Under the pieces are notes generated by a model. It saw only the letters and a list, made by a program, of their open reading frames with translations. It searched no databases and was not told the DNA's origin. Positions 17,399-42,083 of a stretch of DNA of 64,000 bases are shown piece after piece. Made by a program: the position numbers and the translations under genes. This DNA is from Acidimicrobiia bacterium (GTDB lineage Bacteria > Actinomycetota > Acidimicrobiia > Spongiisociales > UBA11373), in the NCBI GenBank assembly GCA_041551965.1, contig JBFELU010000002.1, forward strand, positions 5,829 to 69,828, written 5' to 3'. Position 1 is the first letter of the stretch. Each line of letters opens with the position of its first letter.

Positions 17399-17470
17399 CC
17401 GTAGGCATCGGAGCGCAAAGGGGACGACTTGAGGAGACCGTTGCGGGATCGGGCCCCGGATTGGGTGTGT

Positions 17471-22740: not shown

Positions 22741-22748
22741 GAGGAGAG

Positions 22749-23528: not shown

Positions 23529-23540
23529 AAAGGAGCGCAG

Positions 23541-24632
23541 TTGTCAGACATCCCCGAGTCGCTGCTTCGTCGCTCCGCCGAGGCCAAGGCCAAGGCCACC
23601 GGACGCCCCGTCGAGGAGATCCTCGCCGAGATGAAAGGCGAGGCCCCACCGGAGCCCGCCGAAGCGGCCCCGACCCCGACCGATGAGCCGGCCGCCGCTC
23701 CCGAGAGCGTCGCCGAAAAGGCGGCTGCGGCGACCGCGCAATTGCCGGATCACCTGTTGCGCCGCTCCGCCGAGGCCAAGGCCAAGGCCCAGGGACGACC
23801 GGTGGAGGAGGTCCTCGCCGAGTTGAAGGCGTCGGGCGCCGCCACCCCGCCCCCGCTACCCGAGAAACCCGCCCCCGAAGAGGCGGTTCCCGCGGCCGCC
23901 CCGGCGGCGCAGGCCGACCCCGAGCAAGCCGCCGCCGCCGCCAAAATGCCTGAGAAACTATTGCGCCGCTCCGCCGAGGCCAAGGCCAAGGCCACCGGAC
24001 GCCCCGTCGAGGAGATCCTCGCCGAACTCAAGGGCGAGGCCGCCCCCGCCGCACCGGCTCCCGCGGCCGCCCCGGCGGCGCAGGCCCCGGCAGCGGCCCC
24101 CGCGCCCCAGCCGAGCCTCCCCCCGGTGCCGGAGGGGGTCCGCACCCAGCGCCTCCTCACCGTCGTCAAGGCCAAGGCGATCCAGCAGGTCAAGGCCGAG
24201 CCCACCGACAAGGTGAACGTGTGGCCTCACCTGCTGGCCATCGAGTTCGTGGCCCTCTTGGCGGTGACCGCGCTCCTGGTGATCTTCTCGGTGTTCCAGG
24301 ATGCGCCGCTCCTCGAGCTGGCCAACCCGAACGACCAGCCCAATCCCTCGAAGGCTCCCTGGTACTTCCTCGGGCTGCAGGAACTGCTGTCCTACTTCGA
24401 CCCGCAGGTCGCCGGAGTGCTGATCCCCGGCCTGGGACTCGCCGGCCTGGCGATCATCCCCTACATCGACCGGAACCCCTCGACGCGGCCGGCCGACCGC
24501 AAGTTCGCCATCATGCTGTTCACGTTCTTCGTGGTGGCCTCGGCGATCCTCACGATCATCGGCTCCTTCTACCGGGGGAAGGGGTTCAACTTCACGTTCC
24601 CCTGGAGAGACGGGATCTTCTTCGACCTATGA
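23541..24632 (+). CDS. Subunit IV (PetD-like) of the b6c-type complex, with a ~210-aa N-terminal extension carrying three tandem ~65-aa repeats
   Basis: The C-terminal ~150 aa (KAPWYFLGLQELLSYF...PGLGLAGLAIIPYIDRNP) matches PetD/subunit IV. The N-terminal part carries three copies of LLRRSAEAKAKA[TQ]GRPVEE[IV]LAE[ML]K[GA]... Confidence 0.85.
   Translation: MSDIPESLLRRSAEAKAKATGRPVEEILAEMKGEAPPEPAEAAPTPTDEPAAAPESVAEKAAAATAQLPDHLLRRSAEAKAKAQGRPVEEVLAELKASGAATPPPLPEKPAPEEAVPAAAPAAQADPEQAAAAAKMPEKLLRRSAEAKAKATGRPVEEILAELKGEAAPAAPAPAAAPAAQAPAAAPAPQPSLPPVPEGVRTQRLLTVVKAKAIQQVKAEPTDKVNVWPHLLAIEFVALLAVTALLVIFSVFQDAPLLELANPNDQPNPSKAPWYFLGLQELLSYFDPQVAGVLIPGLGLAGLAIIPYIDRNPSTRPADRKFAIMLFTFFVVASAILTIIGSFYRGKGFNFTFPWRDGIFFDL
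23553..24041 (+). repeat. Three in-frame tandem coding repeats (~190-210 nt each) within the subunit IV gene
   Basis: Copies 1 and 3 share a run of roughly 50-60 identical nucleotides. The exact span was not determined, and the repeat boundaries differ (ctgcttcgtcgctcc versus ctattgcgccgctcc) (cgctccgccgaggccaaggccaaggccaccggacgccccgtcgaggagatcctcgccga), while copy 2 has diverged. All three encode LLRRSAEAKAKAxGRPVEE. Confidence 0.75.
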
Positions 24633-25405
24633 CCGTGCTCGTCATCGCCTTCGTCGCCATCGCCGTCGTCCTGGCGGCGGCCCTGTTCACCGTGGCGTGG
24701 CGCCGCGAGGACGCGGTGTCCGCTCCGGTCGAACGACCGAGGAGGGTGCGCCGCACCCGGGAGCCGGAACCGGCACCCGAGCCCGAGGCCGAGGAGGAGG
24801 TCCCGCTCGACCCGCTGGAAACACGGCCCGAGATCGACGCCGCCGGCTACGACGTCACGAGGAGACAGTTCTTCAACCGCGGCGTGCTCGGGGTCTTCGG
24901 AATCTTCCTGGCCCAATTCGGGATCGCCGCGCTCGCCTTCATGTGGCCCAAGCTCCGCTCCGGCGGGTTCGGCAGCAAGGTCAATGCCGGCAAGCTGGAG
25001 GACATCGAGAAGGAGGTGTTCCTGCCCGATGGCCGGATCGCTCCGCTCTTCGTCTCCGCCGCCCAGGCCTACGTCCTCCCGTTCCAGGGTGAGGTGGCCG
25101 GATCGTCATTCGAAGGCCTCCCCGTGGTGGCCGGCGGCTTGATCGCCTTGTGGCAGCGGTGTGTGCACCTCGGATGCCGGGTCCCGGAGTGCACCTCCTC
25201 CCAGGGCTTCGAGTGCCCCTGTCACGGATCGAAGTACAACTACCACGGCGAATACGAGGACGGGCCGGCACCCCGCAACCTCGATCGGTTCGTGGTCACT
25301 CTCAACGAGAACAACGAATTGATCATCGACACCGGCCAGGTGATCCAGACCGCCCGATCAACCACCAAGACGGCTGAGTACCCGCAGGGGCCGTCGTGCA
25401 TCTGA
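24629..25405 (+). CDS. qcrA: Rieske [2Fe-2S] iron-sulfur subunit
   Basis: CVHLGCRVPEC and CPCHGSKY Rieske boxes. N-terminal TM helix MTVLVIAFVAIAVVLAAALF. ATGA overlap with the upstream stop. Confidence 0.9.
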   Translation: MTVLVIAFVAIAVVLAAALFTVAWRREDAVSAPVERPRRVRRTREPEPAPEPEAEEEVPLDPLETRPEIDAAGYDVTRRQFFNRGVLGVFGIFLAQFGIAALAFMWPKLRSGGFGSKVNAGKLEDIEKEVFLPDGRIAPLFVSAAQAYVLPFQGEVAGSSFEGLPVVAGGLIALWQRCVHLGCRVPECTSSQGFECPCHGSKYNYHGEYEDGPAPRNLDRFVVTLNENNELIIDTGQVIQTARSTTKTAEYPQGPSCI

Positions 25406-25415
25406 GGAGCCGCTG

Positions 25416-26903
25416 ATGGGAATCGGTGCCTTCGTCCTGGCGCTGGCGGTGCTCGGCACGTTGGCGTGGCTGTGGTTCCTGGTGGGGTCGAGCCGGGTCC
25501 GCCGCCGCCGGGAAGCGCCGCCGGCCAATCAATCCCCTTTCATGACCGACGACGAGTTGGAGTCGCGACGGCTCAATTCCACTCTCGTCGGTGCCCTGGT
25601 CGCCAGCGCGGTGCTGGCGATCATCCTGCCCGTCTACTTCCTCGCCGAGACCGACCGCCAGGTGGCTTCGGTCGAGCACTTCGACGAGGTGGCGATCGAA
25701 CGAGGAGAGCACTGGTACGAGGAGTTCCAGTGCGGCGACTGCCACGGTCCGACCGGTGGAGGAGGAGGTGCCGACTACTTGGAGAGGCGCAGCGGCCTCA
25801 CCACATCGTGGGCGGCTCCGTCGATCAACGACGTCCTCTACCGCTATGACGCCGACGAGGTTCGCTACTGGCTGGTCTTCGGCAGGGCCGGCAGTCCCAT
25901 GCCCGCCTGGGGAACCGAGGGAGGCGGACCGCTCAACAGCCAGCAGATCGACGAACTGATCGCCTACCTCGACGCCTTCAGGATTCCCCAGGTGGAGGCG
26001 GTCTCCGAGGTCGAGGGTTCGGTGGCGAGAGAGCTCGCCCGGCTCGCCAACGCCGATGCCACCATCGCCGATGCGATCGATCGGCAGCGGGAGGAAATCC
26101 GGGCCATCGAGGAGGCACCGGCCGTCTATGCGGTGCTCTCCGACGTCGAGGAACGGCTGGCCGGGATCCTGGCCGAGACGTGCAGCGACGAATCAGCGGC
26201 CATCGTGGACAGGACCTGCGAGGAGGAGACGCCGGATCGAGACCGCGACGGTTTGCCGGACGAGGCCGAACGGCAGCTGGCGGAGCTCATCTCCTTCGTC
26301 GTGGCCGAGGCACCGCCCAGCGACGCCGCCGCCGCCCTGGAACGGGCGACGTTCGATCCGGATGCTGCGTTCTCGACGTCGGAGGGCACGACTCCGGTGG
26401 CCGACCTCGCGCTCGCCGAGGCCGTCGCCGGGGAGATCGCGACGATCGTTCGCGACCTCCGCTTGACGGTGGACTCTCAGGAACGCTTGCTGGAGACGGC
26501 AGCCGCCGGGCTCGAGTTCCTGGAGGAGGCTGCCGAGGAACGGCGCTTCGCCATCGATTTCGACGCCCTCGCCGTTGCCTTCGACGGCAACGTCTCCGAC
26601 GCCCGGCGCGGAGCCGCCCTCTACAACGCCTACTGCGCCCGGTGCCACACAGCCGGCTACTCGGCCGGGGTGGCATTCACGCAAGAGGCCGGCTCGGGTG
26701 GTTTCGGGCCGTCGCTGACCGGAGGCCGCTCGGTGGTTCAGTTCCCCGACCCGGCCGACCATCTCGGATTCATCGTCAACGGCTCCGAGAACGGGAAGGC
26801 CTACGGCGTCAACGGCGTGGGCCGGGGCTGGATGCCGGGATTCGGAGTGGTCCTCAGCGAGGAGGACCTGATGTTGATCGTCACGTTCGAGAGGACCCTG
26901 TGA
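25416..26903 (+). CDS. qcrC: Membrane-anchored diheme c-type cytochrome of the bc complex
   Basis: Two heme motifs, CGDCHG (aa ~106) and CARCHT (aa ~407), plus an N-terminal TM helix. An acidic Ala/Glu-rich segment of ~250 aa separates the heme sites. Confidence 0.85.
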   Translation: MGIGAFVLALAVLGTLAWLWFLVGSSRVRRRREAPPANQSPFMTDDELESRRLNSTLVGALVASAVLAIILPVYFLAETDRQVASVEHFDEVAIERGEHWYEEFQCGDCHGPTGGGGGADYLERRSGLTTSWAAPSINDVLYRYDADEVRYWLVFGRAGSPMPAWGTEGGGPLNSQQIDELIAYLDAFRIPQVEAVSEVEGSVARELARLANADATIADAIDRQREEIRAIEEAPAVYAVLSDVEERLAGILAETCSDESAAIVDRTCEEETPDRDRDGLPDEAERQLAELISFVVAEAPPSDAAAALERATFDPDAAFSTSEGTTPVADLALAEAVAGEIATIVRDLRLTVDSQERLLETAAAGLEFLEEAAEERRFAIDFDALAVAFDGNVSDARRGAALYNAYCARCHTAGYSAGVAFTQEAGSGGFGPSLTGGRSVVQFPDPADHLGFIVNGSENGKAYGVNGVGRGWMPGFGVVLSEEDLMLIVTFERTL

Positions 26904-27403
26904 TGCCGACCGGCCTGCGCCGCGATGAACGAGGGCTGAGCAGCCTCGAGTGGCTCGGCATCGTGTTGGCGGTGCTCATCCTGCTGTCGCTGATACCCCA
27001 GTTCCGGGCGGCACTGGACGTCTTCTACGAGAACCTGGTCGGCAAGAACAACGTGAGCCCCGACGGCGAACCGGCGCCCGGCGTCCTGGTCCGCGGTCTG
27101 ATCGTCGCCGTCGCCTCGCTGGCCGTGTTCGCCGGATCGGTCTACCTCATCAACTACACGAACCTGGGCCGGAGGCTCGCCTTCCTCGTGACCGGCACCG
27201 CCTTCTTCGGATTCCTGGCGGTCGTCGGCCTGCTCTACTCCCTCTACGCGCCGCGCGGGCTGCGGCCCACCTCGCTCGAGGGTCTCAACGCCTTTGAGCT
27301 CCGCATCCTCCCCGGGGCGTTGATGGTCGGATCGCTCATCCTGTTCGCCATGTTCCTCACCGCCCTCAACCGGTTCGAATCGGAGAGCGGGGACGACGAG
27401 TAA
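26903..27403 (+). CDS. Small polytopic membrane protein, last gene of the bc-complex operon
   Basis: 166 aa with 4 hydrophobic segments. The ATG overlaps the qcrC TGA (TGATG). High GC3. Confidence 0.6.
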   Translation: MPTGLRRDERGLSSLEWLGIVLAVLILLSLIPQFRAALDVFYENLVGKNNVSPDGEPAPGVLVRGLIVAVASLAVFAGSVYLINYTNLGRRLAFLVTGTAFFGFLAVVGLLYSLYAPRGLRPTSLEGLNAFELRILPGALMVGSLILFAMFLTALNRFESESGDDE

Positions 27404-27411
27404 CCGGGGCC

Positions 27412-28038
27412 CTAGGCGTCGGCTCCGGCCCGATGCAGGTAGTACGACAGCACCTTGAGCTCCGTCGACAGGTCGACTCGCCGCACATCCACGTCGTCGG
27501 GGACCTGGACGTGGGCGGGTGCGAAGTTGAGAATCGACTTGACACCGGAATCGGCGAGGAGGTCGGCCACCTCCTGGGCCGAGTCGGCCGGCGTGGTGAT
27601 CATCCCGATCGAGACCCGCCGTTTCTTCACCGCCTCCGCAAGCCTCTCGACCGGCTCGATCTCGAGTGAGTGGATGTGGGCCCCGACCTTGCCCGGGTCG
27701 CTGTCGAAGAGACCGACGACGACGAAGCCCTCCTCGGCGAATCCCCGGTAATTGGCGAGGGCGAGACCGAGGTTCCCCACCCCGACGATGGCCACCCGCC
27801 AATCCTGAGTGAGCCCGAGGGCCCGCCGGATCTCATAGCGGAGGTGCTCCACCTCGTAGCCGACGCCGCGTACCCCGTATGAACCGAGATAGGAGAGGTC
27901 CTTGCGGACCTTGGCGGAGTTCACCCCGGCACCGGCGGCGAGCTCCTCGCTCGAAATCCCCTCTTCGGAGACCCGATCGAGGACCTTCAGATACAGCGGC
28001 AGGCGCTGCACGGTGGCGCGGGGAACGGTCGGTTTCAC
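27412..28038 (-). CDS. rex: Redox-sensing transcriptional repressor Rex
   Basis: QRLPLYLKVL winged-helix N-terminus and AIVGVGNLGLALANY Rossmann NADH motif. GTG start. Confidence 0.85.
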   Translation of the reverse strand: MKPTVPRATVQRLPLYLKVLDRVSEEGISSEELAAGAGVNSAKVRKDLSYLGSYGVRGVGYEVEHLRYEIRRALGLTQDWRVAIVGVGNLGLALANYRGFAEEGFVVVGLFDSDPGKVGAHIHSLEIEPVERLAEAVKKRRVSIGMITTPADSAQEVADLLADSGVKSILNFAPAHVQVPDDVDVRRVDLSTELKVLSYYLHRAGADA

Positions 28039-30498: not shown

Positions 30499-31020
30499 AT
30501 GATCAGCGGGATTCGGCTCCCGGTGCGATGGTCGACCATCGGTTTCCCGGCCGCCTTCCGTGCCGAGGTCATCACGATCACCGACGGCTCACCCGCATGG
30601 AGTTGGGAAGGGACCATCCCCGAACTCGGGATCCCCACCTTCCGCCCCCCGACGGCCGACGTCGTCCCCGGGTGGGGCGTGGACCATCTCGTCCTGCTCG
30701 TGCCCACCATCGAGATCTCGGTGCTCGACATCGAGCGGGCCGGCTACCGGGTCCGGCGGCGGGCGGAAGTCCGCGGCAGCCCGGTCGCCTTCTTCCGCGT
30801 GGGCCCAGTGCTCGAGGTCATCGAGGCCGCGGTGCCCGAGCCGACCTTGTACGGGATTGCGCTCTGGACCCGGGAGGATCTGAGTGAGGTCGCCCGACGC
30901 CTGCGCTCGACGGGCACCGACCTGGGGGGCCCGAGGCGGGCGATTCAGCCGGGCCGGGAGATCCTGACGGTGCGCGGCCTCGGAGCCGGTCTCGCCGTCA
31001 TGACGCCGCCGACGGCATGA
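30499..31020 (+). CDS. VOC/glyoxalase-like domain protein (tentative)
   Basis: 173 aa with high GC3; the GVDHLVLLVPTIEISVLDIERAGYRV segment resembles a VOC fold. It follows a 300-bp lower-GC non-coding region. Confidence 0.5.
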   Translation: MISGIRLPVRWSTIGFPAAFRAEVITITDGSPAWSWEGTIPELGIPTFRPPTADVVPGWGVDHLVLLVPTIEISVLDIERAGYRVRRRAEVRGSPVAFFRVGPVLEVIEAAVPEPTLYGIALWTREDLSEVARRLRSTGTDLGGPRRAIQPGREILTVRGLGAGLAVMTPPTA

Positions 31021-32197
31021 TTCCGGCGTAGAGCTCGAGGAGACGATCGACCGTCGCCACCCAGGAGAACTGCTCGGCGTGTGCCACCGCGCCGGCCGAC
31101 AGTCTCGCTGCGGTGGCCGGATCACCGAGCACCCGCACCAGGGCTTCTCCGAAGTGGGCCGGATCCCAACCGTCGACGAGAAACCCGGAGGTGCCGTCGG
31201 ACACCGCATGGGCCAGTCCGCCGACGCGGGAAGCGATCACAGGGAGCCCGCACGCCTGGGCCTCGGCGGCAACCAGCCCGAACGACTCGCTCCGGGACGG
31301 GACGAGGAGCACGTCGGCGGCCCGGAAGGCGTCGGCCATGGCCGCGTGCGGCATCGGCGGCCGGAATTCGATCCGATGGCCGGCGGCCAGGTCGCGCAGC
31401 TTCTCGATCTCCCGTTCTCCTCTGGGCCCACTGGGGCCGCCGATCACCAACATCTGGAGATCGGGGACCCGGTCGGCGGCGGTGACGAAGGCGCGAACGG
31501 CCACGTCGGCCGCCTTGAGCGGCTGGATCCTCCCGGCGAACAGCACCATCGGCCCCTCCGAAAGGCCGAGGGCCGCCCGGGAGCGGGCCCGATCGCCGGG
31601 ATGGAACACGTCGTGATCGACGCCGGGCGGAGAGACGCAGAGACGCTCGGGGTCCGCCCCGTAGTGCTCGAGGAGTTGGCCGGCTTCGACCGGGGTCGAT
31701 GCGACCACACACCCGGCCCGGCTGATCACCTCCGTCTCGGCGGCGATGCGGAGCAGGCTCGTCGGGGGGTCGTCGGCCCGGCGGTTGGCGTCCTTGACGC
31801 GTCCCAGTGTGTGAAACGAGATGGCAAAGGGAACATCGAGGACATCCTGGAGAAGCACTCCCGCCCAGCCGGACAGCCAGTAATGGGAGTGGACGACATC
31901 GTGACGCACTTCGCGGGCGGCGGCCCACTTGATGACTCCCTCGGCGAACTCCCCGACGGCTCCGGCCGGGTCGTCCGAAGCGACGTCGACATGGACCACC
32001 CGGTACCCGCCGGATGACTCCACCTCGTCGGGCACGTTGGCGTCGCGACGGGCGGTGAACACATCGACCGCCACTCCCCGGGCGGCGAGCGCGCCGGCGA
32101 GCTCGTCGATGTAGACATTCATGCCGCCGGCGTTCCCCGATCCGGGAACCGTCAGCGGGCAGGTGTGGATGCTCAGGAACGCAACCCGCTCGATCAT
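30998..32197 (-). CDS. GT4 glycosyltransferase, MshA-like (D-inositol-3-phosphate glycosyltransferase family)
   Basis: N-terminus RVAFLSIHTCPLTVPGSGNAGGMNVYIDELAGALAARGVAVDVFT matches the MshA signature ([26 protein letters not shown]). C-terminal GT4 EX7E region. Confidence 0.7.
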   Translation of the reverse strand: MIERVAFLSIHTCPLTVPGSGNAGGMNVYIDELAGALAARGVAVDVFTARRDANVPDEVESSGGYRVVHVDVASDDPAGAVGEFAEGVIKWAAAREVRHDVVHSHYWLSGWAGVLLQDVLDVPFAISFHTLGRVKDANRRADDPPTSLLRIAAETEVISRAGCVVASTPVEAGQLLEHYGADPERLCVSPPGVDHDVFHPGDRARSRAALGLSEGPMVLFAGRIQPLKAADVAVRAFVTAADRVPDLQMLVIGGPSGPRGEREIEKLRDLAAGHRIEFRPPMPHAAMADAFRAADVLLVPSRSESFGLVAAEAQACGLPVIASRVGGLAHAVSDGTSGFLVDGWDPAHFGEALVRVLGDPATAARLSAGAVAHAEQFSWVATVDRLLELYAGIMPSAAS

Positions 32198-33102
32198 GTC
32201 GTACCCTCCAGGAGGTACAACTCCCGCGGCTCTGCTCCCATTCTGAACTTGTAGGTCTCGTCACCCTTGAGGAAGTCGAAGACCGACCGCCCCGCCGCCA
32301 CCGAATCCGACAACAGGAGCTCGAGCAGCACCATGCCCGGCGAAGTCGCCGCGGCCGACGGGTCGAAGGCCGAGTTGTAGAGGTAGTAGGCATCGGGGGT
32401 CTCGAACCCGAACGACGCCGCCAGTGCGATGCCCTCCTCGCCGGTGAGGAGATGGATGCCGGCCCCGGACACTTCGAGCAGCGAGCCGAAGAAGGACTCC
32501 AAGGCCGGGGTCATGAACAACCCCTTCGGTCCGGGGGCACTCCGATGCATCTCCGCAAACCGGGCGAGGGCGGTGCGGTCGGTTGCCCTGGTGATTCGGG
32601 CCGGACCGTGGGTCTCGGTGAAGCGGCGCATCTTGCGTCGCGTCTCATGGCGCTGCTTCGACCCCAGAGCGGCCAGGCGATCCTCATCGGTCGCGGGAAG
32701 GTTCAGCACGGCGCTCACCTCGTCCGGCCGAGCCACCACGGCGAAGCCGGCGGCCTCGAGACCGTCCTTCAACTGCGCGGCGGCTTCCCCCGGGAGCGAG
32801 TCGAACAGGAACCGGGTCCCCGGTTGGAGCGTTCCCAGGAACTCAGCCGCCGCGGCGCCTCCCCCCGATCCCAGCGGGCTGTGGTAGTCGGTGAGGTCTG
32901 CCTCGCCCAGGAACTCCACGGTTCCCGTCACCTCCCGCAAGGGCAGGAGCGCCGTCTCGGATTCCACCAACCGCAACTCGCCGCCGCCACGGTGACGCCA
33001 CCAGGCCTCGAGGAACCCGCGATGAGGGAAGGGCCCCACCGCCGCAGCGGCCGGCGGACGGGTCCAATCGACCGCGGACCAGTCGTCGGTGACCTCGATC
33101 AC
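32194..33102 (-). CDS. GNAT-fold acyltransferase, FemAB/CelD (BioF2-like) family
   Basis: 302 aa with a C-terminal VFDFLKGDETYKFRMGAEPRELY motif typical of the CelD/BioF2-like acetyltransferase domain. The start overlaps the GT4 stop. Confidence 0.6.
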   Translation of the reverse strand: MIEVTDDWSAVDWTRPPAAAAVGPFPHRGFLEAWWRHRGGGELRLVESETALLPLREVTGTVEFLGEADLTDYHSPLGSGGGAAAAEFLGTLQPGTRFLFDSLPGEAAAQLKDGLEAAGFAVVARPDEVSAVLNLPATDEDRLAALGSKQRHETRRKMRRFTETHGPARITRATDRTALARFAEMHRSAPGPKGLFMTPALESFFGSLLEVSGAGIHLLTGEEGIALAASFGFETPDAYYLYNSAFDPSAAATSPGMVLLELLLSDSVAAGRSVFDFLKGDETYKFRMGAEPRELYLLEGTT

Positions 33103-34040
33103 TCGGCGTCCTCCAGGGGCCGGGTCGTGCCGACGCGACGGGCTCCGCCGAGTACGGGGGGTCGCGCCACCTCAGCCAGGGCCTGCTCCGGATGAGCGGG
33201 GAGCAGGCCGAGACGACGCAGCATCTCGATCACGGCGATCACGGCCGCCGGCAGCGCCCCGGTCCACGCCTTGGCGGCGATCCCCACTCCGGAGAAGTGG
33301 GCCAGGCCGAGGCACCCCATTGCCCCCCCTTTGACGGCCGCCGGGATCCAACGCGCCAACTGCGTCTCCTCTCGATCCCCGTCCGCGGTGAGCGCGGAGA
33401 AGCGGGACACAGCCCGCGCCACCTCCGAGAGCCGCGGATCCGAAGCCAGCGCCGCGTAGGCGGTGGCCAATCCGATCACGGTGCCGCCGAAGGTCGGCAC
33501 CCCACACCCATCGACCCCGACGGGACCGACGTCCTCCCGGGTCGTCTCGGCCAGGCACGAGGCGATCTCCTTCTGGAGGGGATGGGCAGAATCGGTGTAG
33601 TGGAAAGACCATTCGAGCGCGGCACAGGCCCGCAACATCGCGGCGTGCTTTCCGGAGCAGTTGTGGGCCAACCGCCTCGGGGATGCCCAACCGGCGGCTC
33701 CGGCACGGCGCATCGCCGAAGGGCTCATCGGCCAGGAAGGAGGGCAGGCGAGGTTCTCCTCCCCCAAGCCGACCTCCCGCAGCATCTCGGTGACGTGGGC
33801 GAGGTGCACCGGTTGACCGCCGTGACTCGCCGACGCGATCGCCAGCCGCTCCGGCGCCAAGTCGGCGCCGAGCCGTTGGGAAACCGAGGCCTGAAAGGGC
33901 TTGATCGCCGAGCGGAAGAAGAACCTTCGATCGAGATCGGTGCCAAAGGTCTCCAGGACCTTGCCGGACGAATCCACTGCAGCGACCGTCACCGAGTGCC
34001 GGGCCTCCACCAGCCCGGATCGCTCCACGCCGATCTGCAC
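33099..34040 (-). CDS. Asparaginase II family protein (PF06089-type)
   Basis: RSAIKPFQA...CSGKHAAMLRAC...GVDGCGVP are asparaginase-II family signatures, 313 aa. Confidence 0.75.
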   Translation of the reverse strand: MQIGVERSGLVEARHSVTVAAVDSSGKVLETFGTDLDRRFFFRSAIKPFQASVSQRLGADLAPERLAIASASHGGQPVHLAHVTEMLREVGLGEENLACPPSWPMSPSAMRRAGAAGWASPRRLAHNCSGKHAAMLRACAALEWSFHYTDSAHPLQKEIASCLAETTREDVGPVGVDGCGVPTFGGTVIGLATAYAALASDPRLSEVARAVSRFSALTADGDREETQLARWIPAAVKGGAMGCLGLAHFSGVGIAAKAWTGALPAAVIAVIEMLRRLGLLPAHPEQALAEVARPPVLGGARRVGTTRPLEDAE

Positions 34041-34041
34041 G

Positions 34042-34581
34042 TCAGTCCTGCTGCAGCAACTCGTGGGGATCGGCCAGACCTTCGCGATAGCGGCGGGTCA
34101 ATTCGTGCTGCACCGCATCATGGGCTTCGAACACCGCTCGTCGCTGCCGCGATATCTCGCCCTCGGCCTCGGTGAGCGTTGCCTGGATCTGCTCCAACTC
34201 CTCGTCGTCGATCTCGTGGAGATGCACGAGGAAGTCGTCGCCGAGCACGCGGTCGATGGCCCGGCGACCCCGCCCCGAGAACTCCGGGGCATCGATCTCG
34301 AGCCGGCGCGAGGCAACCGGTGCGGTCGACGGCGTGGCTCCGGCCAGGATGTCGGGGAGCGCCTCGATCAGGCTCCGCTCTTCCTCACCGCTCCGGCGTC
34401 GCATCTCGAAGGACAGCAGATCCATGCGTCCGTGCAGCAGGCGGCGGTAGTAGGACAGCTCGGTGTCCAACTCATCGCAGATACGGCGACGACGGCGGAG
34501 CTCGTCGATGCCGATCTCGGTGAGCTCGGCCACGAACTCGGGGGATTCGACCAGGTCGATACGGCGGCGGTTCTTTGTCAC
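34042..34581 (-). CDS. Coiled-coil protein with two RsiG-like c-di-GMP-binding helix motifs (putative anti-sigma factor RsiG homologue)
   Basis: 179 aa, charged and helical. Motif 1: D39-x3-S43-x2-R46-x3-H50-x3-D54 (DTELSYYRRLLHGRMD). Motif 2, exactly 100 aa later: E139-x3-S143-x2-R146-x3-F150-x3-D154 (EGEISRQRRAVFEAHD). Both have the spacing of the RsiG E-x3-S-x2-R-x3-Q-x3-D motif. Confidence 0.5.
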   Translation of the reverse strand: MTKNRRRIDLVESPEFVAELTEIGIDELRRRRRICDELDTELSYYRRLLHGRMDLLSFEMRRRSGEEERSLIEALPDILAGATPSTAPVASRRLEIDAPEFSGRGRRAIDRVLGDDFLVHLHEIDDEELEQIQATLTEAEGEISRQRRAVFEAHDAVQHELTRRYREGLADPHELLQQD

Positions 34582-34613
34582 GACATCACCCTCAGGACCG
34601 AGAGCCTAGGGGG

Positions 34614-35759
34614 TCAGCATACGGCCCGGACCGAAGGATACGGGTTCACGGCAATGGTGCCACCCGGAAAGATCCCGAAGTGGAGGTGATAGGCCCCCGG
34701 TGCCGGATTCCCCGTGTCTCCCACCGTCCCGATCACGGTTCCGATGGTGATGGTGTCGCCGCTCCCGAGATCGGCGGCGAACGCGTCGAGGTGGGCGTAG
34801 AAGTAAGACACGCCGTAGTCGGAGTGCAGCCAGGCAGTGTTGCCGCCGAGCACACTCGATCCGTATCGAATGACGCCGTTGGCCACCGCCACCAGCGGCG
34901 TGCCCCTCGGCGCCATCATGTCCGTCCCCCGGTGGGTGCGGCCCCCGGAACGAGGAGCACCCCACGTGTCGATGAAGGACGAGGGCCCGGCCACCGGACA
35001 GATGAACCCCGGGGTGAGATCGAACCCGATCCCGGCCGCCGGTCCCGCCGTCGCCTCCAGGAGAGCCCGGCGAATCCGCTCCTCCTCCTCGCGTCGGCGG
35101 CGCTCTTCTTCCTCGCGTCTCCGCTGCTCGGCCAGTTCGCCTTCGACCTGGGCCAGATCCTGATCTGCCTCGGCGAGACCTTGCTCCGCTTCGGCGAAAA
35201 GCTCGTTCATGCGGGCCGCCACCGCCTCCGCTTCGAGCCGCAATTCGGTTACCCGATCCGAGTCGGCCGCGACCTGCTCTTCGAGCCGCTCCATCTCGTC
35301 GGTGATCGCCAGCAGCGACGTCAACGCTGCGGCATCGGCCTCGATGGCACCGGCGAGGATCTCCCGGGCGATGACCGCCTGCTGCACCCGATCGGAGGCA
35401 AACACGAGCGATACCTCGTCGGCCCGTTCTCCCCGCATGTAGGCGTCGACCGCTCGCAGCCGAACGGTCTCCCTGAGATTCCCGACCTCGTTCTCGTAGG
35501 TATCGATGCGGCTCCGCAGCTGACCCATCCGGAAGGTGAGCTCTTGGAACTCCGCGTTGATCTCCTCGTAGCGAGTCACGGCCGCCTCGAGGTCCTGGAG
35601 GGCAGCGGCCCGCTCGGTCGCCGCCGCCTCTCGATCGCGTCGGGCCTCCTCAACCTCTTCTTCCGTCACCGAACGCGCCGGGACCGCCGTCGCCATCAGC
35701 CACAACAGCATCAGGCCGACGGCGGTCAGCAGCCGACGGTTGGCGAAGCGCATCTTCAT
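34614..35759 (-). CDS. M23 family metallopeptidase with N-terminal signal/TM and long coiled-coil (EnvC/RipA-like architecture)
   Basis: Start MKMRFANRRLLTAVGLMLLWLMATAVPA at 35759. About 200 aa of coiled coil (EQRRREEEERRRREEEER), then the LytM domain HRGTDMMAPRGTPLVAVANGV...AWLHSDYGVSYFYAHL...GDTGN...HLHFG. Confidence 0.8.
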   Translation of the reverse strand: MKMRFANRRLLTAVGLMLLWLMATAVPARSVTEEEVEEARRDREAAATERAAALQDLEAAVTRYEEINAEFQELTFRMGQLRSRIDTYENEVGNLRETVRLRAVDAYMRGERADEVSLVFASDRVQQAVIAREILAGAIEADAAALTSLLAITDEMERLEEQVAADSDRVTELRLEAEAVAARMNELFAEAEQGLAEADQDLAQVEGELAEQRRREEEERRRREEEERIRRALLEATAGPAAGIGFDLTPGFICPVAGPSSFIDTWGAPRSGGRTHRGTDMMAPRGTPLVAVANGVIRYGSSVLGGNTAWLHSDYGVSYFYAHLDAFAADLGSGDTITIGTVIGTVGDTGNPAPGAYHLHFGIFPGGTIAVNPYPSVRAVC

Positions 35760-35839
35760 CGAGTGCCCGTCATCGTATGAGTGAATCGGGGTTATCCCCA
35801 GCCTTTCATCGGCAGCCCCGCCGTGGTGGTGAATCGGAT

Positions 35840-36820
35840 TCAGGCGAGCAGCCGCAGCACGAGCCAGAACGGGCCCGAGGCCATCAGCAGCCCGTCGACG
35901 GCGTGGAAGCTCCCCGGCATGGCCCCCGACGAGTAGAAGCCCCCGGTGCGAAGCAGCGAACCGATCGTCCTCCCGGCGACCAGAGCCACCGCCGCTGCCG
36001 CCGCCGCCACCAGGCCCAGCACGAGGTCGTCCATGAGGGTCGCGCCCCCGATCCCACCCGCCGCCAAGGCGGCGAGCGAGGCGACGACCATCGAGTCGAG
36101 GCCGGGGACGTTCGCTTGGGCGGCAAACCACCCGAGTACCGCCGCAGCCACGGCCACGACCAGGAAGGCGAGAGCATCGTCCTCCGACCTCAGCCGGAGC
36201 AGCACGAGGGCCGAGGAGCCGAACCCGGCGATCAAGGCCAGCATCGCGCTGCCCGCCACCGATTCGATCGGACGGAGGTGTGGTCTCACGACCGCCCACA
36301 CCAGGGCGACGAGTCCGGCCCCGATCGTGGCCCCGGCCATCCCGGCACCGCCCCACCGGTAGGTGGCGAGCGCTCCGCCCACCACGCCGACCAGGAGGGG
36401 ACCGAAGCCGAGATGGACGTCGCGGCTGCGGGCCGACTCGGTGATGTCGTAGGCCCACAGCAGACCGGTGAGCACGACGGCGACGGTGAACCACTGCAAC
36501 GAAACGGCGTTGGTGACGAAGAGGGCGAGCGCGATCGCGAGGACGAGGCCGATCTCCATGCCGATGGGAGAACGAATCGTGGTTGCGCCCCCCGAAACCG
36601 GGGGAATGAGGGCAACCTCGTCGTCATCACCGACGGGGGTTTCCCCATCGGCCTGCTCCCCGTTCACCCACACCTGGGCGGCCGGAAGGCCCCGCTCGAA
36701 GGCAGGCCCGAATCGATCGGCCGCCCGGCCGAGCACCTCGGCGACCGACGATCCCTCGATCTCCGCCGACGCCGAGCCGGCCGCCTCGCGGAGATTCGCA
36801 AAGAGACGCAGGCGGGCCAT
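35840..36820 (-). CDS. MoaD/ThiS-like beta-grasp domain (ending PPVSGG) fused in frame to a ~245-aa polytopic membrane domain
   Basis: N-terminal 78 aa MARLRLFANLREAAG...VWVNGEQADGETPVGDDDEVALIPPVSGG is a sulfur-carrier fold with a diglycine end. No stop follows; the ORF continues as ATTIRSPIGMEIGLVLAIALALF... with 7-8 hydrophobic helices. The junction sits in a run of 6 G (6 C on the plus strand, ~36590). Confidence 0.55.
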   Translation of the reverse strand: MARLRLFANLREAAGSASAEIEGSSVAEVLGRAADRFGPAFERGLPAAQVWVNGEQADGETPVGDDDEVALIPPVSGGATTIRSPIGMEIGLVLAIALALFVTNAVSLQWFTVAVVLTGLLWAYDITESARSRDVHLGFGPLLVGVVGGALATYRWGGAGMAGATIGAGLVALVWAVVRPHLRPIESVAGSAMLALIAGFGSSALVLLRLRSEDDALAFLVVAVAAAVLGWFAAQANVPGLDSMVVASLAALAAGGIGGATLMDDLVLGLVAAAAAAVALVAGRTIGSLLRTGGFYSSGAMPGSFHAVDGLLMASGPFWLVLRLLA

Positions 36821-36918: not shown

Positions 36919-37821
36919 TTGCGTCGGGTGGAACGGATCGGCATCGTCGAAGTGGGGCCGCGCGACGGTCTTCAGGCCGAAGATGCGGTACTGACGGTCG
37001 AAGATCGCCTTGCCCTGATCGAGTTCTTGGCCGGCGCCGGCGCCTCACGCATCGAGGTCGCCTCGTTCGTCCGGCCGGATCGAGTTCCGCAGATGGCCGG
37101 AGCGGAGGAGATCTGTGCCGGGCTCGACCCCGGTCGAGCGTGGTCGGCGATCGGCCTGGTGCTCAACCGCAGGGGGATGGAGCGGGCCCTGGCCACCTCG
37201 CTCGACGAGGTCAATCTCGTCGCCTACGCTTCCGACGGCTACAGCCTCCGCAACACCGGCAGACCGGCCGCCGACCGGAATGGAGAGGTCCTGGAGTCGA
37301 CCGCCGCAGCCGTTGCCGCGGGGCGCCGGACGGGCGTGACGGTCGCGGTGGCCTTCGGCGACCCCGTCGACGGCGAGGTCCCGGCCTCGAGGCTCGCCAC
37401 ATTGGCGGCCGATCTGCAGGACGCAGGTGCTTCCGAGGTCAATCTGGGCGACACCATCGGCGTGGCCGTTCCCTCGATGGTTTCCGATCGGGTTGCCGCC
37501 GTGCGTAACGCGGCACCGGGCCTGTCCCTTCGATGCCACTTCCACAACACCCGCAACAACGGCTACGCCAATGTGCTGGCGGCGCTCACCGCAGGCGTCG
37601 ACGCCGTCGACTCGTCCATCGGCGGGTACGGCGGTAGTCCGTTCTCCCCGGGAGCCGGCGGCAACGTGGCCACCGAGGACCTCGTGTGGATGCTGGAGCG
37701 CATGGGCAGCACCACGGGCATGGACCTCGAGAGGCTGATGGCCACTTCGGTCTGGCTGGCGGAACGTCTCGGCGACCGCCGGCCCCCCTCCCTACTTCCT
37801 CGCGCTGGACCGTTCCCCTAA
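36919..37821 (+). CDS. HMG-CoA lyase-like (pyruvate carboxyltransferase/DRE-TIM) family protein
   Basis: VERIGIVEVGPRDGLQAE...RIEVASFV...HFHNTRNNGYANVLAALTAGVDAVDSSIGGYGGSPFSPGAGGNVATEDLV are HMGL-family signatures. Confidence 0.8.
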   Translation: MRRVERIGIVEVGPRDGLQAEDAVLTVEDRLALIEFLAGAGASRIEVASFVRPDRVPQMAGAEEICAGLDPGRAWSAIGLVLNRRGMERALATSLDEVNLVAYASDGYSLRNTGRPAADRNGEVLESTAAAVAAGRRTGVTVAVAFGDPVDGEVPASRLATLAADLQDAGASEVNLGDTIGVAVPSMVSDRVAAVRNAAPGLSLRCHFHNTRNNGYANVLAALTAGVDAVDSSIGGYGGSPFSPGAGGNVATEDLVWMLERMGSTTGMDLERLMATSVWLAERLGDRRPPSLLPRAGPFP

Positions 37822-39014
37822 GAATCGTCTTCGTCGGTCGGTTCGACGAGTGAGACCGGCTCCCGGGCCGGGTCCCCACCCTCGAACCTGGCGATCACGT
37901 CGCCCTCTCCGAACGAGCCGTCGCCGCTGAAATCGATGTGGATCTCGATCCACACCGCGGCCGGAATCTCGACCGGCGGTTCGAGGGGCAACACCACATC
38001 GCGGTAGGTGCCTCGCTCGAGGAACTCGCCCACCACCAGCGTGTCGCCCGGGGAGCCGTCGACGTCGGCCCGTACGACCAAGAAGCCGCCGCTGGGAAGC
38101 GTGACCGAGTCGATGGTCACTTCGACGCCCTCCGACTCCTGCTCGGAGACGAGGATGACCGCGGGAGCTCGGGGGACAGCGGTGATCGGCGCCGAGTCGG
38201 CGGCCTCGAACCCATCGATCCGGAGGGCCACCACGTCCTCGACGTCGGAGCCTTCGATGTCGGCGCCCTCGATGTCCAGGGCGCCGTTGCGGTTGCGATC
38301 GACGATCAACTGGGCCCACAACGTTGCCGAGATCTCGAGGCGCTCTGCGAGCTCGACCACGACATCGGTGTGCGACCCCTCCGACAGGAGCTCACCGACA
38401 CCCACGATCTCACCGGGGGCGCCTGCCTGATCTGCTCGCACGACGACGAAGCCGGCGGCGGGAAGCAGCACGTCGGCCACGACGACTTCCACGCCCAGTG
38501 ATCGCTGCGCCTCGAAGACCACGTCGGCCGGGGTCAGAGCGGGCAGCAATCCCACCGTCGCCGATGTGGACGCAGTCTCGCCGTTGGCTCGCGTCGCAGG
38601 GACGTCGACGAAACCGTCCGGCGGCTCGAACGTGAAGACGCCGTCTCGATCCATGTCGATGTGGACCATGGCGTGCACAACGTCCTCCCCCTCGATCGGC
38701 ACGAAGAGAGGAACCGAGACGTTGCCGATGACTCCCGCCGAGAGCCTCTCCCCGACACCGATGACCTCCCCCGGAGCCCCGGCTTCGTCGCTGTGGAGCG
38801 CGACGAACCCGTCGGACGGCAGCGACACGGACCTGACGATCACCGTGGAACCCTCGGACAACTGGTCCTCGAAGACGAGGTCTGCCGGGCCGGTGGCGGG
38901 AGGGAGGGCATTCGGGTCACCGACCGTCGTCGTGGTGACACCGGAGGACTCGTAGGCGCAGGCCCCGACCATCAGGGCGAGTGCCATCACCAGGATTCGA
39001 CGGGGAGCGATCAC
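37818..39014 (-). CDS. Lipoprotein with three ~115-aa tandem beta-rich repeats; third gene of the znuA-znuB operon
   Basis: Signal peptide plus lipobox (LMVGAC). Three repeats follow the pattern S[VL]xLPxxGF[VL]VxxADxAGAPGExxGVGExLSxG...VxLxxxxExxAxxWxxxxxDxxRDGxxxFE. The stop lies 7 nt from the znuB start on the same strand. Confidence 0.7.
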   Translation of the reverse strand: MIAPRRILVMALALMVGACAYESSGVTTTTVGDPNALPPATGPADLVFEDQLSEGSTVIVRSVSLPSDGFVALHSDEAGAPGEVIGVGERLSAGVIGNVSVPLFVPIEGEDVVHAMVHIDMDRDGVFTFEPPDGFVDVPATRANGETASTSATVGLLPALTPADVVFEAQRSLGVEVVVADVLLPAAGFVVVRADQAGAPGEIVGVGELLSEGSHTDVVVELAERLEISATLWAQLIVDRNRNGALDIEGADIEGSDVEDVVALRIDGFEAADSAPITAVPRAPAVILVSEQESEGVEVTIDSVTLPSGGFLVVRADVDGSPGDTLVVGEFLERGTYRDVVLPLEPPVEIPAAVWIEIHIDFSGDGSFGEGDVIARFEGGDPAREPVSLVEPTDEDDS

Positions 39015-39020
39015 GGCGGC

Positions 39021-39878
39021 TCAGGGTACTCCATGGACCGAGTCCCGGACCTCGGTGCGCCGGAAGCGTCGCACCATCCGATCGACGATCAGCACGGCGA
39101 AGAACACCGCCACCGCCAGACCGGACATCGTCGCCCCGGCCGCCGTATCCAGGTGGAACGAGATGAGGAGCCCGGCCACGACCTCGGCCGCGCCGATGAC
39201 GGCGGCCGCCGCCATCACCGCGGGAACACGGTGCACCACCAGCACGGCGGTGGCCGGAGGGGCGATGAGCAGCCCGAACACCAACAGGGCCCCCACCGCT
39301 TGAAACGAGGCAACGACCGCCACGGTGATCAGGCCCATCATGACGAGGTGGGCGACCCGGGGCCGCAGCCCGAGCGCCTCCGCCTTCTCTTCGTTGAACG
39401 ACAGCGCCAGCAGCGGCCGGTAGAACCACGCCACGCCGATGATGACGGTCCCGGCCGCAAGCGACTGCAGCACGAGGTCTCCGGTCGTCGTGCCGAGAAC
39501 GTCGCCGAAGAGGATGGCGACGAGGTCGACGGCGAACGATCCGCTGCGGGAGATGAGGATCACGCCGAGAGCGAGCATGCCCACGAACAGCAGCCCGATG
39601 GCGGTGTCCTCGGTCAACCTGGTCGTCCGGTGCACCAGGGCGATGGCTCCGATCATCACGACGGCAGCGACGGCCGCCCCCACGGCGAGATTCACATCGA
39701 GGAGGAAAGCGACGGCGACCCCGGGGAGGATGCCGTGGGCCAGCGCATCACCCATGAACGCCAGGCCGCGGATGATGACCCAGGTGCCCACCACCGAGGT
39801 CGTGGCCACGGCGAGGATTCCCGACAGCAGCGCTCGCTGCATGAAGTCGTAGGAGAACGGTTCGGTCAGCCAGTCCAT
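39021..39878 (-). CDS. znuB: Metal (Zn/Mn) ABC transporter permease, ABC-3 family
   Basis: 285 aa, 8-9 TM, ZnuB/MntB-like (LLSGILAVATTSVVGTWVIIRGLAFMGDALAHGILPGVA). Confidence 0.85.
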   Translation of the reverse strand: MDWLTEPFSYDFMQRALLSGILAVATTSVVGTWVIIRGLAFMGDALAHGILPGVAVAFLLDVNLAVGAAVAAVVMIGAIALVHRTTRLTEDTAIGLLFVGMLALGVILISRSGSFAVDLVAILFGDVLGTTTGDLVLQSLAAGTVIIGVAWFYRPLLALSFNEEKAEALGLRPRVAHLVMMGLITVAVVASFQAVGALLVFGLLIAPPATAVLVVHRVPAVMAAAAVIGAAEVVAGLLISFHLDTAAGATMSGLAVAVFFAVLIVDRMVRRFRRTEVRDSVHGVP

Positions 39879-39885
39879 GATCGCC

Positions 39886-40785
39886 TCATCGGGTCAGAGC
39901 CTCGGTGATCCGCTCGGCATCGGTGCGCAACAAGGAGAGGTACGTCTCGGCCCCCGACCCGGGCGGCCCCAGGGAACCGGTATACAGGGGCACGACCGCC
40001 ACGTCGAGTCCGGTTTCGGCGGCGACCGTATCGGCGAGATCGGTGGGCCGGGTGGAATCGACGAAGACGGCCGACACGCCGGTGGCAACGATCGTGCGTA
40101 CGAGGTCGGCGAGATCGCCGGCACTGGGTTCGGCCAGTGTGGAACCGCCAGGGACGATCACCCCGACGACGTCGAAGCCGTAGCGGTCGGCGAAGTAGCC
40201 GAGGGAGTCGTGATCCGTCACCAGGAGCCGTTGCGCCGGCGGAATCGCGGCCACCATGACGGCCACCTCTTCGTGGACCGCCAGGATCTCCGCTCGATAG
40301 GCCGCCGCCGCGTCTCGCCACTCGGCCGCAACATCCTCATCGAGGTCGGCGAGGGCCTCCCCGATCAGTGTGACCGCCGTCGCCATCCGCACGGGATCGA
40401 GCCACACGTGGGGATCGAACGAGCCCGATCCGAGGACCAGGGGATCGACCGCCGGACCGACTTCGAGCACCGCCACTCCGTCTCCCCGAGCCCCCTCCAC
40501 TACGTCTTCCAGCCCCTCCTCGAGACCGAGGCCGTTGATCACCACCAGTTCCGCATTCCGGAGGAGCGCCGCCTGGGCCGCCGAGGCCTGGTAGGCGTGG
40601 GGATCGACCCCTGCGGGAATGAGCACCTCGACCTTCGCCCGCCCCCCGACGATCCTGTCGGCGATGTCACCGAGGATCGACGTGGAGGCAACGACACGGG
40701 TGCCGTCGTCATCGGCGGCACCGCCCTCGCAGGCCGCCGGAAGCACCAGGAGGGGCACCATCAGCAGCGGAAGCATGCGACGCAA
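39886..40785 (-). CDS. znuA: Metal ABC transporter substrate-binding lipoprotein (ZnuA/TroA family)
   Basis: Signal peptide MRRMLPLLMVPLLVLPAAC, then TroA-fold motifs (VVASTSILGDIA...DPHVWLDP...DSLGYFADRYG). The TTG start at 40785 preserves the RR n-region; the ATG at 40776 is an alternative. Confidence 0.85.
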   Translation of the reverse strand: MRRMLPLLMVPLLVLPAACEGGAADDDGTRVVASTSILGDIADRIVGGRAKVEVLIPAGVDPHAYQASAAQAALLRNAELVVINGLGLEEGLEDVVEGARGDGVAVLEVGPAVDPLVLGSGSFDPHVWLDPVRMATAVTLIGEALADLDEDVAAEWRDAAAAYRAEILAVHEEVAVMVAAIPPAQRLLVTDHDSLGYFADRYGFDVVGVIVPGGSTLAEPSAGDLADLVRTIVATGVSAVFVDSTRPTDLADTVAAETGLDVAVVPLYTGSLGPPGSGAETYLSLLRTDAERITEALTR

Positions 40786-40798
40786 CGAGGTCCCTTTC

Positions 40799-40811
40799 GA
40801 GAACGGTTCTC
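40799..40811. promoter_or_regulatory. Candidate Zur operator: 13-bp palindrome GAGAAC-G-GTTCTC in the 45-bp znuA/zur divergent intergenic region
   Basis: Perfect 6-bp inverted arms with a 1-nt spacer, centred between the divergent znuA and zur starts. Fur-family boxes are palindromic, but this does not match the usual actinobacterial Zur consensus (TGAAAATGATTTTCA-like). Confidence 0.35.
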
Positions 40812-40830
40812 ATTCTAGTAGAGTTGGCGC

Positions 40831-41292
40831 ATGCCCTCCACCGCCACCCTCCCCACCGACATCGAGCGGGCCGTGCGAACCCGCCTCGGTGACCGGGCGG
40901 CCCGTTTCACCCCAACCCGGCGAGCGGTGGTGGCTGAACTCGCCGCCGCAGAAGGCCCCCTGACCCCGGCCGACCTGCTCCGGCGGCTCGGAGCCCGGGT
41001 GCCGGTGTCGTCGCTGTACCGGACGCTCGCCACCCTCGACGAGGGTGGCATCGTGCACCGCACCCACGACGCCGAGGGCATCACCCGCTTCGAGTTGGCA
41101 GAGTGGCTCAACGGCCACCATCACCACCTCGTCTGCGTCGGCTGCGGCGAGGTGCGCGACATCGAGATCAACGGCGATTGGGAAAGCACCATCGCCGCCC
41201 TGGTGGGGCGGGTGGCGGCCGCCAGCGGCTATGCCGTCTCCGGCCACCGCATCGATATCGAAGGGACCTGCACCCGGTGCGCGGAGAACTAG
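40831..41292 (+). CDS. zur: Fur-family zinc uptake regulator
   Basis: 153 aa with a winged-helix N-terminus, a His-rich HHHH metal site, CVGCGEV and CTRCAE structural zinc motifs; positioned divergently from znuA. Confidence 0.8.
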   Translation: MPSTATLPTDIERAVRTRLGDRAARFTPTRRAVVAELAAAEGPLTPADLLRRLGARVPVSSLYRTLATLDEGGIVHRTHDAEGITRFELAEWLNGHHHHLVCVGCGEVRDIEINGDWESTIAALVGRVAAASGYAVSGHRIDIEGTCTRCAEN

Positions 41293-42083
41293 CGGCCGCG
41301 GGCTCCGGCGTGATCCTCGCCTACGACGGTGAAGTCGGCCTCCACGAGTCCGACTTCGCCGTCCCTTCGGGTCGGGTGACTGCGGTGATCGGCCCCAACG
41401 GATCGGGCAAGTCGACGTTGTTGCACGGTCTCGCCGGTCTGCTCGAGCCTCGGAAGGGAACCCTCCGGGTCCTGGGCGGACCGCCGGCGAGAGCCCGGCG
41501 CAGGATCGCCTACGTCTTGCAGACCATCAAGGTCAACGAGGTGATCCCGATCACCGTTCGAGAGGCCGTCGCCATGGGCCGCTACGCCCTGCTCGGTCCC
41601 TTCCGGCCGATGAGCCGCACCGATCGGATTGCGGTCGATCGAGCCCTCGATCGGCTCGAAATCGGTGAGATCGCCCACGCCCACCTCACCGATCTGTCGG
41701 GAGGGCAGCGGCAGCGGGTCTTCGTGGCGCAGGGACTGGCGCAAGAAGCGGACCTGTTGCTGCTCGATGAGCCGCTCACGGGGCTCGATCTCGTCTCGCG
41801 CGACCGGATCGCCCGAGCGATCCACACCGAGACGGAGCGGGGTGCCACGGTCGTGGTGACCACGCACGATGTCGCCGAGGCCAACTCGGCCGACCACGTG
41901 TTGCTGATGTCGGGCCGGGTCCACACCGAGGGACCTCCTGCGGAGGCGCTGTCACCCGATCGGCTGTCCGATGCCTACGGGATCGGCATCATGCACCTCG
42001 AGGATGGTTCGATCGTCCTCGATGACGATGCCCACCGGCCCGAGGGCGAACGCCACGTCCACTTCGAGCGGGGCCGGGCCTAA
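41277..42083 (+). CDS. znuC: Metal ABC transporter ATP-binding protein
   Basis: Walker A GPNGSGKST, signature LSGGQRQR, Walker B LLLLDEP and an H-loop. The start is GTG 41277 or GTG 41310; the track ORF start at 41103 overlaps zur in another frame. Confidence 0.8.
   Translation: MRGELAAAGSGVILAYDGEVGLHESDFAVPSGRVTAVIGPNGSGKSTLLHGLAGLLEPRKGTLRVLGGPPARARRRIAYVLQTIKVNEVIPITVREAVAMGRYALLGPFRPMSRTDRIAVDRALDRLEIGEIAHAHLTDLSGGQRQRVFVAQGLAQEADLLLLDEPLTGLDLVSRDRIARAIHTETERGATVVVTTHDVAEANSADHVLLMSGRVHTEGPPAEALSPDRLSDAYGIGIMHLEDGSIVLDDDAHRPEGERHVHFERGRA

Follow-up and report, generated by a model that had tools for sequence, protein, structure and literature searches.

The RsiG–WhiG switch controls sporulation in Streptomyces, and in Rubrobacter radiotolerans, which is unicellular and non-sporulating, it controls type IV pili. 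Flagellated bacteria possess another anti-sigma-28 factor, FlgM, which wraps around σ2 and σ4 and is regulated by secretion without a nucleotide ligand. FlgM inhibits the same sigma family as RsiG, but the two proteins are unrelated in sequence and fold.

As described by Gallagher et al. 2020 (PMC7005675), Streptomyces venezuelae RsiG reads the central guanines of its ligand through Arg residues on their Hoogsteen faces and the flipped-out guanines through Asp residues on their Watson–Crick faces. Both kinds of residue are essential, which was shown with the R71A/D79A/R169A/D177A mutant, whereas Gln merely stacks on the flipped-out bases, and Ser and Glu provide contacts to phosphate and ribose. 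A loop folds over the c-di-GMP dimer, with contacts from Ser108, His110, Ser112 and Arg115.

Schumacher et al. 2021 (PMC8325347) give the RsiG motif as E(X)3S(X)2R(X)3[Q/H](X)3D. The same source reports twin-motif RsiG in three of four Acidimicrobiales, and its SI Table S1 names Ilumatobacter coccineus YM304_37910, Acidithrix ferrooxidans AXFE_25810 and Ferrithrix thermotolerans. Since these proteins are already listed, the occurrence of RsiG in this lineage was known before. They come from the same bacterial class as the gene described here and belong to the same twin-motif family, judging from the listing; the copy analysed here differs in coming from an uncultured lineage represented by a metagenome-assembled genome (MAG).

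The main yield of our analysis is a confident RsiG annotation, and what is new are smaller points: a clade-wide Tyr/Phe in motif 2, a conserved rsiG gene string and a WhiG-like promoter before an HD-GYP gene. Acidimicrobiia are abundant in marine and sediment habitats, and the motif 2 variant, the fixed neighbourhood and the candidate promoter offer handles on what the switch controls in these bacteria; current understanding is not overturned by any of them. The accessible sections of the RsiG/WhiG papers do not describe the aromatic motif 2 residue, the conserved N-terminal RRRID or the fixed gene string.

Gene, fold and family

The window, that is, the whole stretch of 64,000 nucleotides that was analysed, has a G+C content of 68%. 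The rsiG homologue occupies positions 34042–34581 on the (-) strand, is 540 nt long and encodes 179 amino acids, with a GTG start and a TGA stop. A Shine–Dalgarno-like GAGGG (34589–34593, (-)) lies 7 nt before the GTG. The third-position G+C content (GC3) is 0.83, as usual for coding frames in the window. The open reading frame is real, as the earlier note had it, which left the strand unstated.

The gene is clearly a relative of RsiG, the actinobacterial c-di-GMP-dependent WhiG inhibitor. Its product is matched in two stretches by Pfam PF22802 (RsiG), for which it scores 64.2 bits where the gathering cut-off is 27 (E 8.8e-18); NCBIfam models give no match. The best phmmer match in the PDB is 6pfj_T (E 3.1e-13), which pairs aa 19–176 with residues 21–175 of the chain; this is the RsiG of S. 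venezuelae (6PFJ/6PFV), deposited under the name AmfC. The single-motif Rubrobacter RsiG (7lq2, 7lq3 and 7lq4) is matched at E about 3e-4 over the α1 helix.

An AlphaFold2 (AF2) model, a predicted and not a solved structure, was built on 120 orthologues and has a mean pLDDT of 78.7. It contains two long helices, α1 (aa 25–63; 34393–34509, (-); pLDDT 90–94) and α5 (aa 126–166; 34084–34206, (-); pLDDT 91–97), which form the first and second coiled-coil arms, with short helices between them and a disordered linker loop (aa 83–105; 34267–34335, (-)) for which pLDDT falls below 50. The first of these helices aligns to α1 of S. venezuelae RsiG. When the model is compared with the PDB by Foldseek, the top four matches are the RsiG chains of 6PFV/6PFJ (probability 1.00, TM-score 0.61–0.72, 34–35% identity). 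They alone reach E <1e-3, and the next match has an E of 0.7. The model thus shows the RsiG fold, in which a helical insert and a flexible loop connect two long antiparallel helices.

The two arms are also related to each other. The α5 region is identical to the α1 region at 16 of 53 positions (30%) with a fixed offset of 101 residues; for S. venezuelae RsiG, the published value is 33%. The BLOSUM62 local score of the two regions is 60, and none of 2000 shuffles reaches it (mean 23.3, SD 4.5, maximum 44). By this comparison, the two long helices arose by internal duplication, reproducing that described for RsiG.

Profile, PDB sequence match, fold and duplication together support the proposal of the earlier note that the gene encodes an RsiG-type homologue. 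The checks it proposed against an RsiG profile and the 6PFJ/6PFV structure came out positive, the single-motif Rubrobacter protein gave a match as well, and its picture of two antiparallel helices carrying one motif each agrees with the predicted structure. We conclude that the gene product is most likely a monomeric twin-motif member of the RsiG anti-sigma factor family.

Compared with S. venezuelae RsiG (vnz_19430; PMC7005675), the protein is alike in its predicted monomeric twin-motif architecture, its fold and its α1/α5 duplication, with about 34% identity over the full length. Common to both are the Arg/Asp pairs, both Ser residues and the motif 2 Glu, and the σ2/σ4 contact residues are conserved. 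The homologue differs in having a shorter N-terminal tail with the clade-specific RRRID, and three of its motif residues are exchanged: motif 1 begins with Asp and not Glu, and His (motif 1) and Phe (motif 2) replace the two stacking Gln residues. Its c-di-GMP-covering loop is not conserved save for one Arg. In the Rubrobacter radiotolerans protein (7LQ2–7LQ4), α1 and motif 1 align and the mechanism is the same in principle, but that protein has one motif and must dimerise, whereas here both helices are present in one chain.

Homologues are numerous: the protein collection contains 1467, and the best 120 of these, on which the RsiG residue counts below are based, are 56–90% identical to the protein and come from Acidimicrobiia MAGs wherever a taxon is given. 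Some of the close homologues are already titled 'aerial mycelium formation protein' in NCBI. An RsiG relative is encoded by 283 GTDB species representatives, the nearest being 90% identical, and among the best 80 of these 283 records nearly all bear the label of an uncultured Acidimicrobiia or Actinomycetota MAG. Those close homologues that are named come throughout from Acidimicrobiia or Actinomycetota MAGs, matching the restriction of RsiG to Actinomycetota. Three records with GTDB labels of Gemmatimonadales, Saprospiraceae and Acidobacteria (L040, L054 and L077) carry an Acidimicrobiia-type rsiG homologue with 56–58% identity; they are probably mis-binned or mislabelled.

At least 90% of the 120 Acidimicrobiia orthologues retain the N-terminal RRRID (aa 5–9; 34555–34569, (-)), and it is invariant in a subset of 26 sequences. 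It contains RxxD and is not covered by the alignment with S. venezuelae RsiG.

c-di-GMP motifs and sigma-contact residues

Motif 1, DTELSYYRRLLHGRMD, spans aa 39–54 (34420–34467, (-)) and reads D39-x3-S43-x2-R46-x3-H50-x3-D54. Motif 2, EGEISRQRRAVFEAHD, spans aa 140–155 (34117–34164, (-)) and reads E140-x3-S144-x2-R147-x3-F151-x3-D155. The position of motif 1 is that given by the earlier note, which was also right about the presence of motif 2 but placed it at aa 139–154. With motif 2 at aa 140–155, the motifs are 101 residues apart and not 100.

Both motifs agree exactly with the published pattern in their spacing and in Ser, Arg and Asp, and all four base-specifying residues (R46, D54, R147 and D155) are present. 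The three substitutions that the earlier note named are correctly read: motif 1 opens with Asp where the pattern has Glu, a conservative change, Gln is replaced by His in the same motif, and Phe takes the place of Gln in motif 2. However, the second of these is no deviation, because the published motif (PMC8325347) already allows Gln or His at this position, whereas the Phe of motif 2 lies outside the published set.

The motif residues are kept in the orthologues, as would be expected from the earlier proposal. Motif 1 has Asp in 119 and Glu in one of the 120 sequences at its first position, and its Ser, Arg, His and final Asp are found in all 120. Glu, Ser and Arg of motif 2 are likewise invariant (120/120). 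Position 4 of motif 2 is Tyr in 92, Phe in 26 and His in 2 orthologues, with Gln in none; motif 2 ends in Glu in 63 sequences, in Asp in 56 and in Ala in one. We infer that an aromatic Tyr or Phe at position 4 is compatible with stacking. The Phe of motif 2, the Glu that ends motif 2 in about half of the orthologues and the Asp that opens motif 1 are variants that weigh against the RsiG reading and may bear on c-di-GMP binding.

The loop of aa 83–105, which by alignment would be equivalent to the RsiG loop covering the c-di-GMP dimer, is variable apart from R92 (Arg in 96 and Lys in 24 of the 120). R92 is paired in the alignment with Arg115, a stacking residue in S. venezuelae RsiG, and the equivalents of the other loop contacts, Ser108, His110 and Ser112, are not conserved among the 120 orthologues.

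To locate the WhiG-contact surfaces, we mapped the S. venezuelae contact residues onto the homologue through its pairwise alignment with 6pfj_T. Conserved equivalents of σ4 contacts are R29, R32, Y165, L161, L175 and L176. Among these, R29 and R32 (R54 and R57 in S. venezuelae) are each Arg in 120/120 orthologues, Y165 (Y187) is found in all 120, and L175 and L176 (L197 and L198) in 111 and 102, respectively; the equivalent of I183 is among the conserved positions. The σ2 pocket is represented by Y44, L55, L71, L75 and L121. Y44 (Y69 in S. venezuelae) is replaced by nothing other than Phe in the 120 orthologues, L55 (I80) is present in 119, L71 and L75 (V95 and L99) in 116 and 120, and L121 (L143) in 119. 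The sole exception is R33, the counterpart of R58, which is variable (Arg in 41/120). Judging from this alignment, the σ2/σ4 contact equivalents are almost all invariant or conservatively replaced across the Acidimicrobiia.

By analogy with the work on the S. venezuelae and Rubrobacter proteins, we infer ligand binding, sigma capture and a regulon for this RsiG. At high c-di-GMP, a partially intercalated c-di-GMP dimer would sit between α1 and α5. R46 and R147 would recognise the central guanines by their Hoogsteen faces, D54 and D155 the flipped-out guanines by their Watson–Crick faces, and H50 and F151 would stack on the latter. Ligand-loaded RsiG would clamp σ2 and σ4 of a WhiG2-type σ28 and hold it off RNA polymerase; a drop in c-di-GMP would set WhiG free, and its regulon would be transcribed. 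Since the Acidimicrobiia host is non-sporulating, that regulon must differ from the one in S. venezuelae.

Candidate sigma factor partner and gene neighbourhood

Pfam scans of about 50 open reading frames, covering all of the 64-kb window save the putative nuo operon at its left end, found no sigma factor. Likewise, WhiG queries (one from S. venezuelae, two from Acidimicrobiales) revealed no whiG by tblastn, neither in the window nor, among 85 related loci, within 10 kb of rsiG; the sole match was a weak one to an ECF sigma factor in L002. The S. venezuelae WhiG sequence was taken from PDB alignments, and a protein search seeded with it returned Streptomyces only. The Acidimicrobiales WhiG sequences were reached through a search of representatives at 50% identity and cluster look-ups.

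A search seeded with P0268 yielded 118 usable FliA/WhiG sigma factors of 255–260 aa, and those with a taxon label are all from Acidimicrobiales MAGs. The c-di-GMP contacts of WhiG are retained in them, K57 and R62 in 118/118 and G61 in 112/118, and each of the RsiG contacts T235, L236, Y239, E240 and L242 is found in at least 112 of the 118. The E. coli FliA row, which is misaligned, was left out of this reading. WhiG2-type orthologues with K57/G61/R62 are widespread in Acidimicrobiales MAGs.

The gene order around these sigma factors is xerC-whiG-rpsB-tsf-pyrH-frr-cdsA-dxr-rseP, and in Streptomyces it is dprA-whiG-tetR-M23-rpsB-tsf-pyrH-frr-cdsA, as read from loci L087–L091 and L093. The whiG neighbourhood is conserved across the two Actinomycetota classes, and the common rpsB-tsf-pyrH-frr-cdsA setting therefore identifies the Acidimicrobiales sigma factors as positional orthologues of whiG and not as sigma factors of a flagellar cluster. 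Among the matches compared, no RsiG and WhiG pair came from the same contig or the same assembly. Every genome with rsiG has whiG according to PMC7005675 and PMC12871210, and the putative co-occurrence of the two in the source genome rests on this published rule together with the conserved binding surfaces.

The rsiG gene lies in a string of genes on the same strand (30998–36820, (-)), with gaps of a few to tens of nucleotides, in the order ThiS/MoaD-fused membrane protein, M23 peptidase, rsiG, asparaginase II, Acetyltransf_6 GNAT and GT4. Directly upstream is the gene for a secreted M23 peptidase (Pfam Peptidase_M23; 34614–35759, (-), start approximate), and rsiG starts 32 nt past its stop. 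Downstream, Pfam and NCBIfam identify Asparaginase_II (33099–34040, (-)), an Acetyltransf_6 GNAT (32194–33102, (-)) and an MshA-like GT4 (30998–32197, (-)). The rsiG stop is separated from the asparaginase II start by 1 nt, and the next two junctions overlap by 4 nt.

This arrangement is maintained in relatives. Of 86 rsiG loci, 85 have the M23 gene upstream in the same orientation, the median gap being 42 nt, and the downstream order asparaginase II-Acetyltransf_6-GT4 is kept in 74–86 of the 86. The flanking genes M23 and asparaginase II are there in 85–86 of these loci, the remaining three in 70–75; the missing cases go together with loci from short contigs.

The GT4 product scores 398 bits against the mycothiol MshA model TIGR03449, which is under the cut-off of 462.5. 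In relatives, a YbjN-family gene follows GT4; a pairing of mshA with a YbjN gene is familiar from other Actinobacteria.

The two motif matches might be coincidental features of a generic charged coiled coil. In 200,000 shuffles of the protein, the relaxed pattern [ED]x3Sx2Rx7[DE] appears at least once in 6%, but two matches appear in just 0.17%. The pattern by itself is only moderately unlikely and is not decisive in a sequence rich in Glu, Asp and Arg, and we therefore built the case on homology and not on a motif count. The full-length sequence, profile and fold matches are all specific for RsiG; the PF22802, 6pfj_T and Foldseek matches refute coincidence, and its probability is practically nil. 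A quite unlikely reading is that of drift at the second nucleotide site of an RsiG homologue. The stoichiometry or the affinity of its c-di-GMP binding would then differ, or the protein would take a different nucleotide or hold WhiG with no ligand at all. Such drift would account for a motif 2 that never has Gln at position 4 and ends in Glu in 63/120 orthologues, although the α5 motif is strikingly conserved with Gln in the published logos (PMC8325347), and for a loop that has lost its contacts other than R92. However, the Arg and Asp residues that mutagenesis found essential are all present in both motifs of the protein. The Gln serves for stacking alone, the authors of the motif accept His in its place, and Tyr or Phe would presumably stack as well. 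Finally, the invariance of Glu, Ser and Arg in motif 2 argues for continued selection on the site.

The gene neighbourhood suggests yet another reading, a c-di-GMP receptor with the RsiG fold but a partner other than WhiG, acting, for example, in the control of the co-transcribed M23/MshA-like envelope genes. In 86 of 86 loci, the rsiG gene is fixed on one strand and with short gaps between M23 and asparaginase II-GNAT-GT4, the string consists of envelope and metabolic genes without an obvious link to a sigma factor, and whiG is absent within 10 kb in the related loci. Nevertheless, synteny alone is no pointer to a protein partner, and Streptomyces likewise shows no linkage between the two genes, its whiG locus containing no RsiG gene. 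Taken with the σ2/σ4 contact surface, which is invariant or nearly so across the clade, and the published presence of whiG in all rsiG genomes (PMC7005675 and PMC12871210), this makes a partner other than WhiG very unlikely.

HD-GYP gene, candidate promoter and other genes of the window

According to Denis et al. 2026, c-di-GMP enzymes are the most widespread predicted WhiG targets, and WhiG promoters are recognised with a one-mismatch criterion. The HD-GYP protein that the earlier note saw about 17 kb away does exist: its gene is located at 11408–17398 (-), and its start is 16.6 kb from rsiG. The product of 1996 aa has an HD_5 domain with HHERFDGTGYP followed by Big_9/cadherin repeats (Pfam).

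In the 72-nt gap upstream of this gene, we noticed a WhiG/sigma-28-like promoter, TCAA-N16-TCCGATGC (17405–17432, (-)), which fits the one-mismatch criterion of Denis et al. 2026. It ends 9 nt before the ATG, suggesting a leaderless HD-GYP transcript. The sole relative found (L092:2380–2520, 83% amino acid identity) has the same -35 and -10 blocks at the same distance of 16 nt, but it differs in the sequence of the spacer and elsewhere in the intergenic gap. The strict WhiG consensus T[AC]AA-N15–17-GCCGA occurs four times in the window (1.4 expected), always within genes, and with one mismatch it occurs 18 times (7.5 expected), a number that by itself is not significant. Because there is a single comparison and the motif is not rare in the window, the HD-GYP promoter is a lead only. 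Upstream of rsiG and of the M23 gene, no WhiG-type promoter was found.

One scenario combining these features is that the RsiG–WhiG switch of Acidimicrobiia has been rewired to envelope and adhesion functions: rsiG with an aromatic motif 2 would be fixed in an M23/MshA-like operon, and its sigma factor would directly drive, from a leaderless sigma-28-type promoter, transcription of the gene for the giant HD-GYP/cadherin-repeat surface protein. We regard this scenario as unlikely; if true, it would close a feedback loop, as freed WhiG would raise c-di-GMP degradation.

Several other genes of the window are recognisable. A putative nuo (NADH dehydrogenase) operon at 3–11236 (-) is judged from gene sizes and membrane-type N-termini alone. 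Within 21640–28038, a respiratory cluster encoding a 4Fe-4S ferredoxin, a split cytochrome b, a Rieske protein and a dihaem cytochrome c is followed by a Rex-like redox regulator (27412–28038). At 37818–42083, a secreted protein with three DUF7282 repeats adjoins a ZnuA/ABC-3/ABC ATPase metal uptake system and a Fur-family regulator. Finally, 47983–51477 (+) encodes a ribonucleotide reductase of class II (B12-dependent) with 1164 aa, in which the barrel is matched in two stretches and a TSCPD domain forms the C-terminus.
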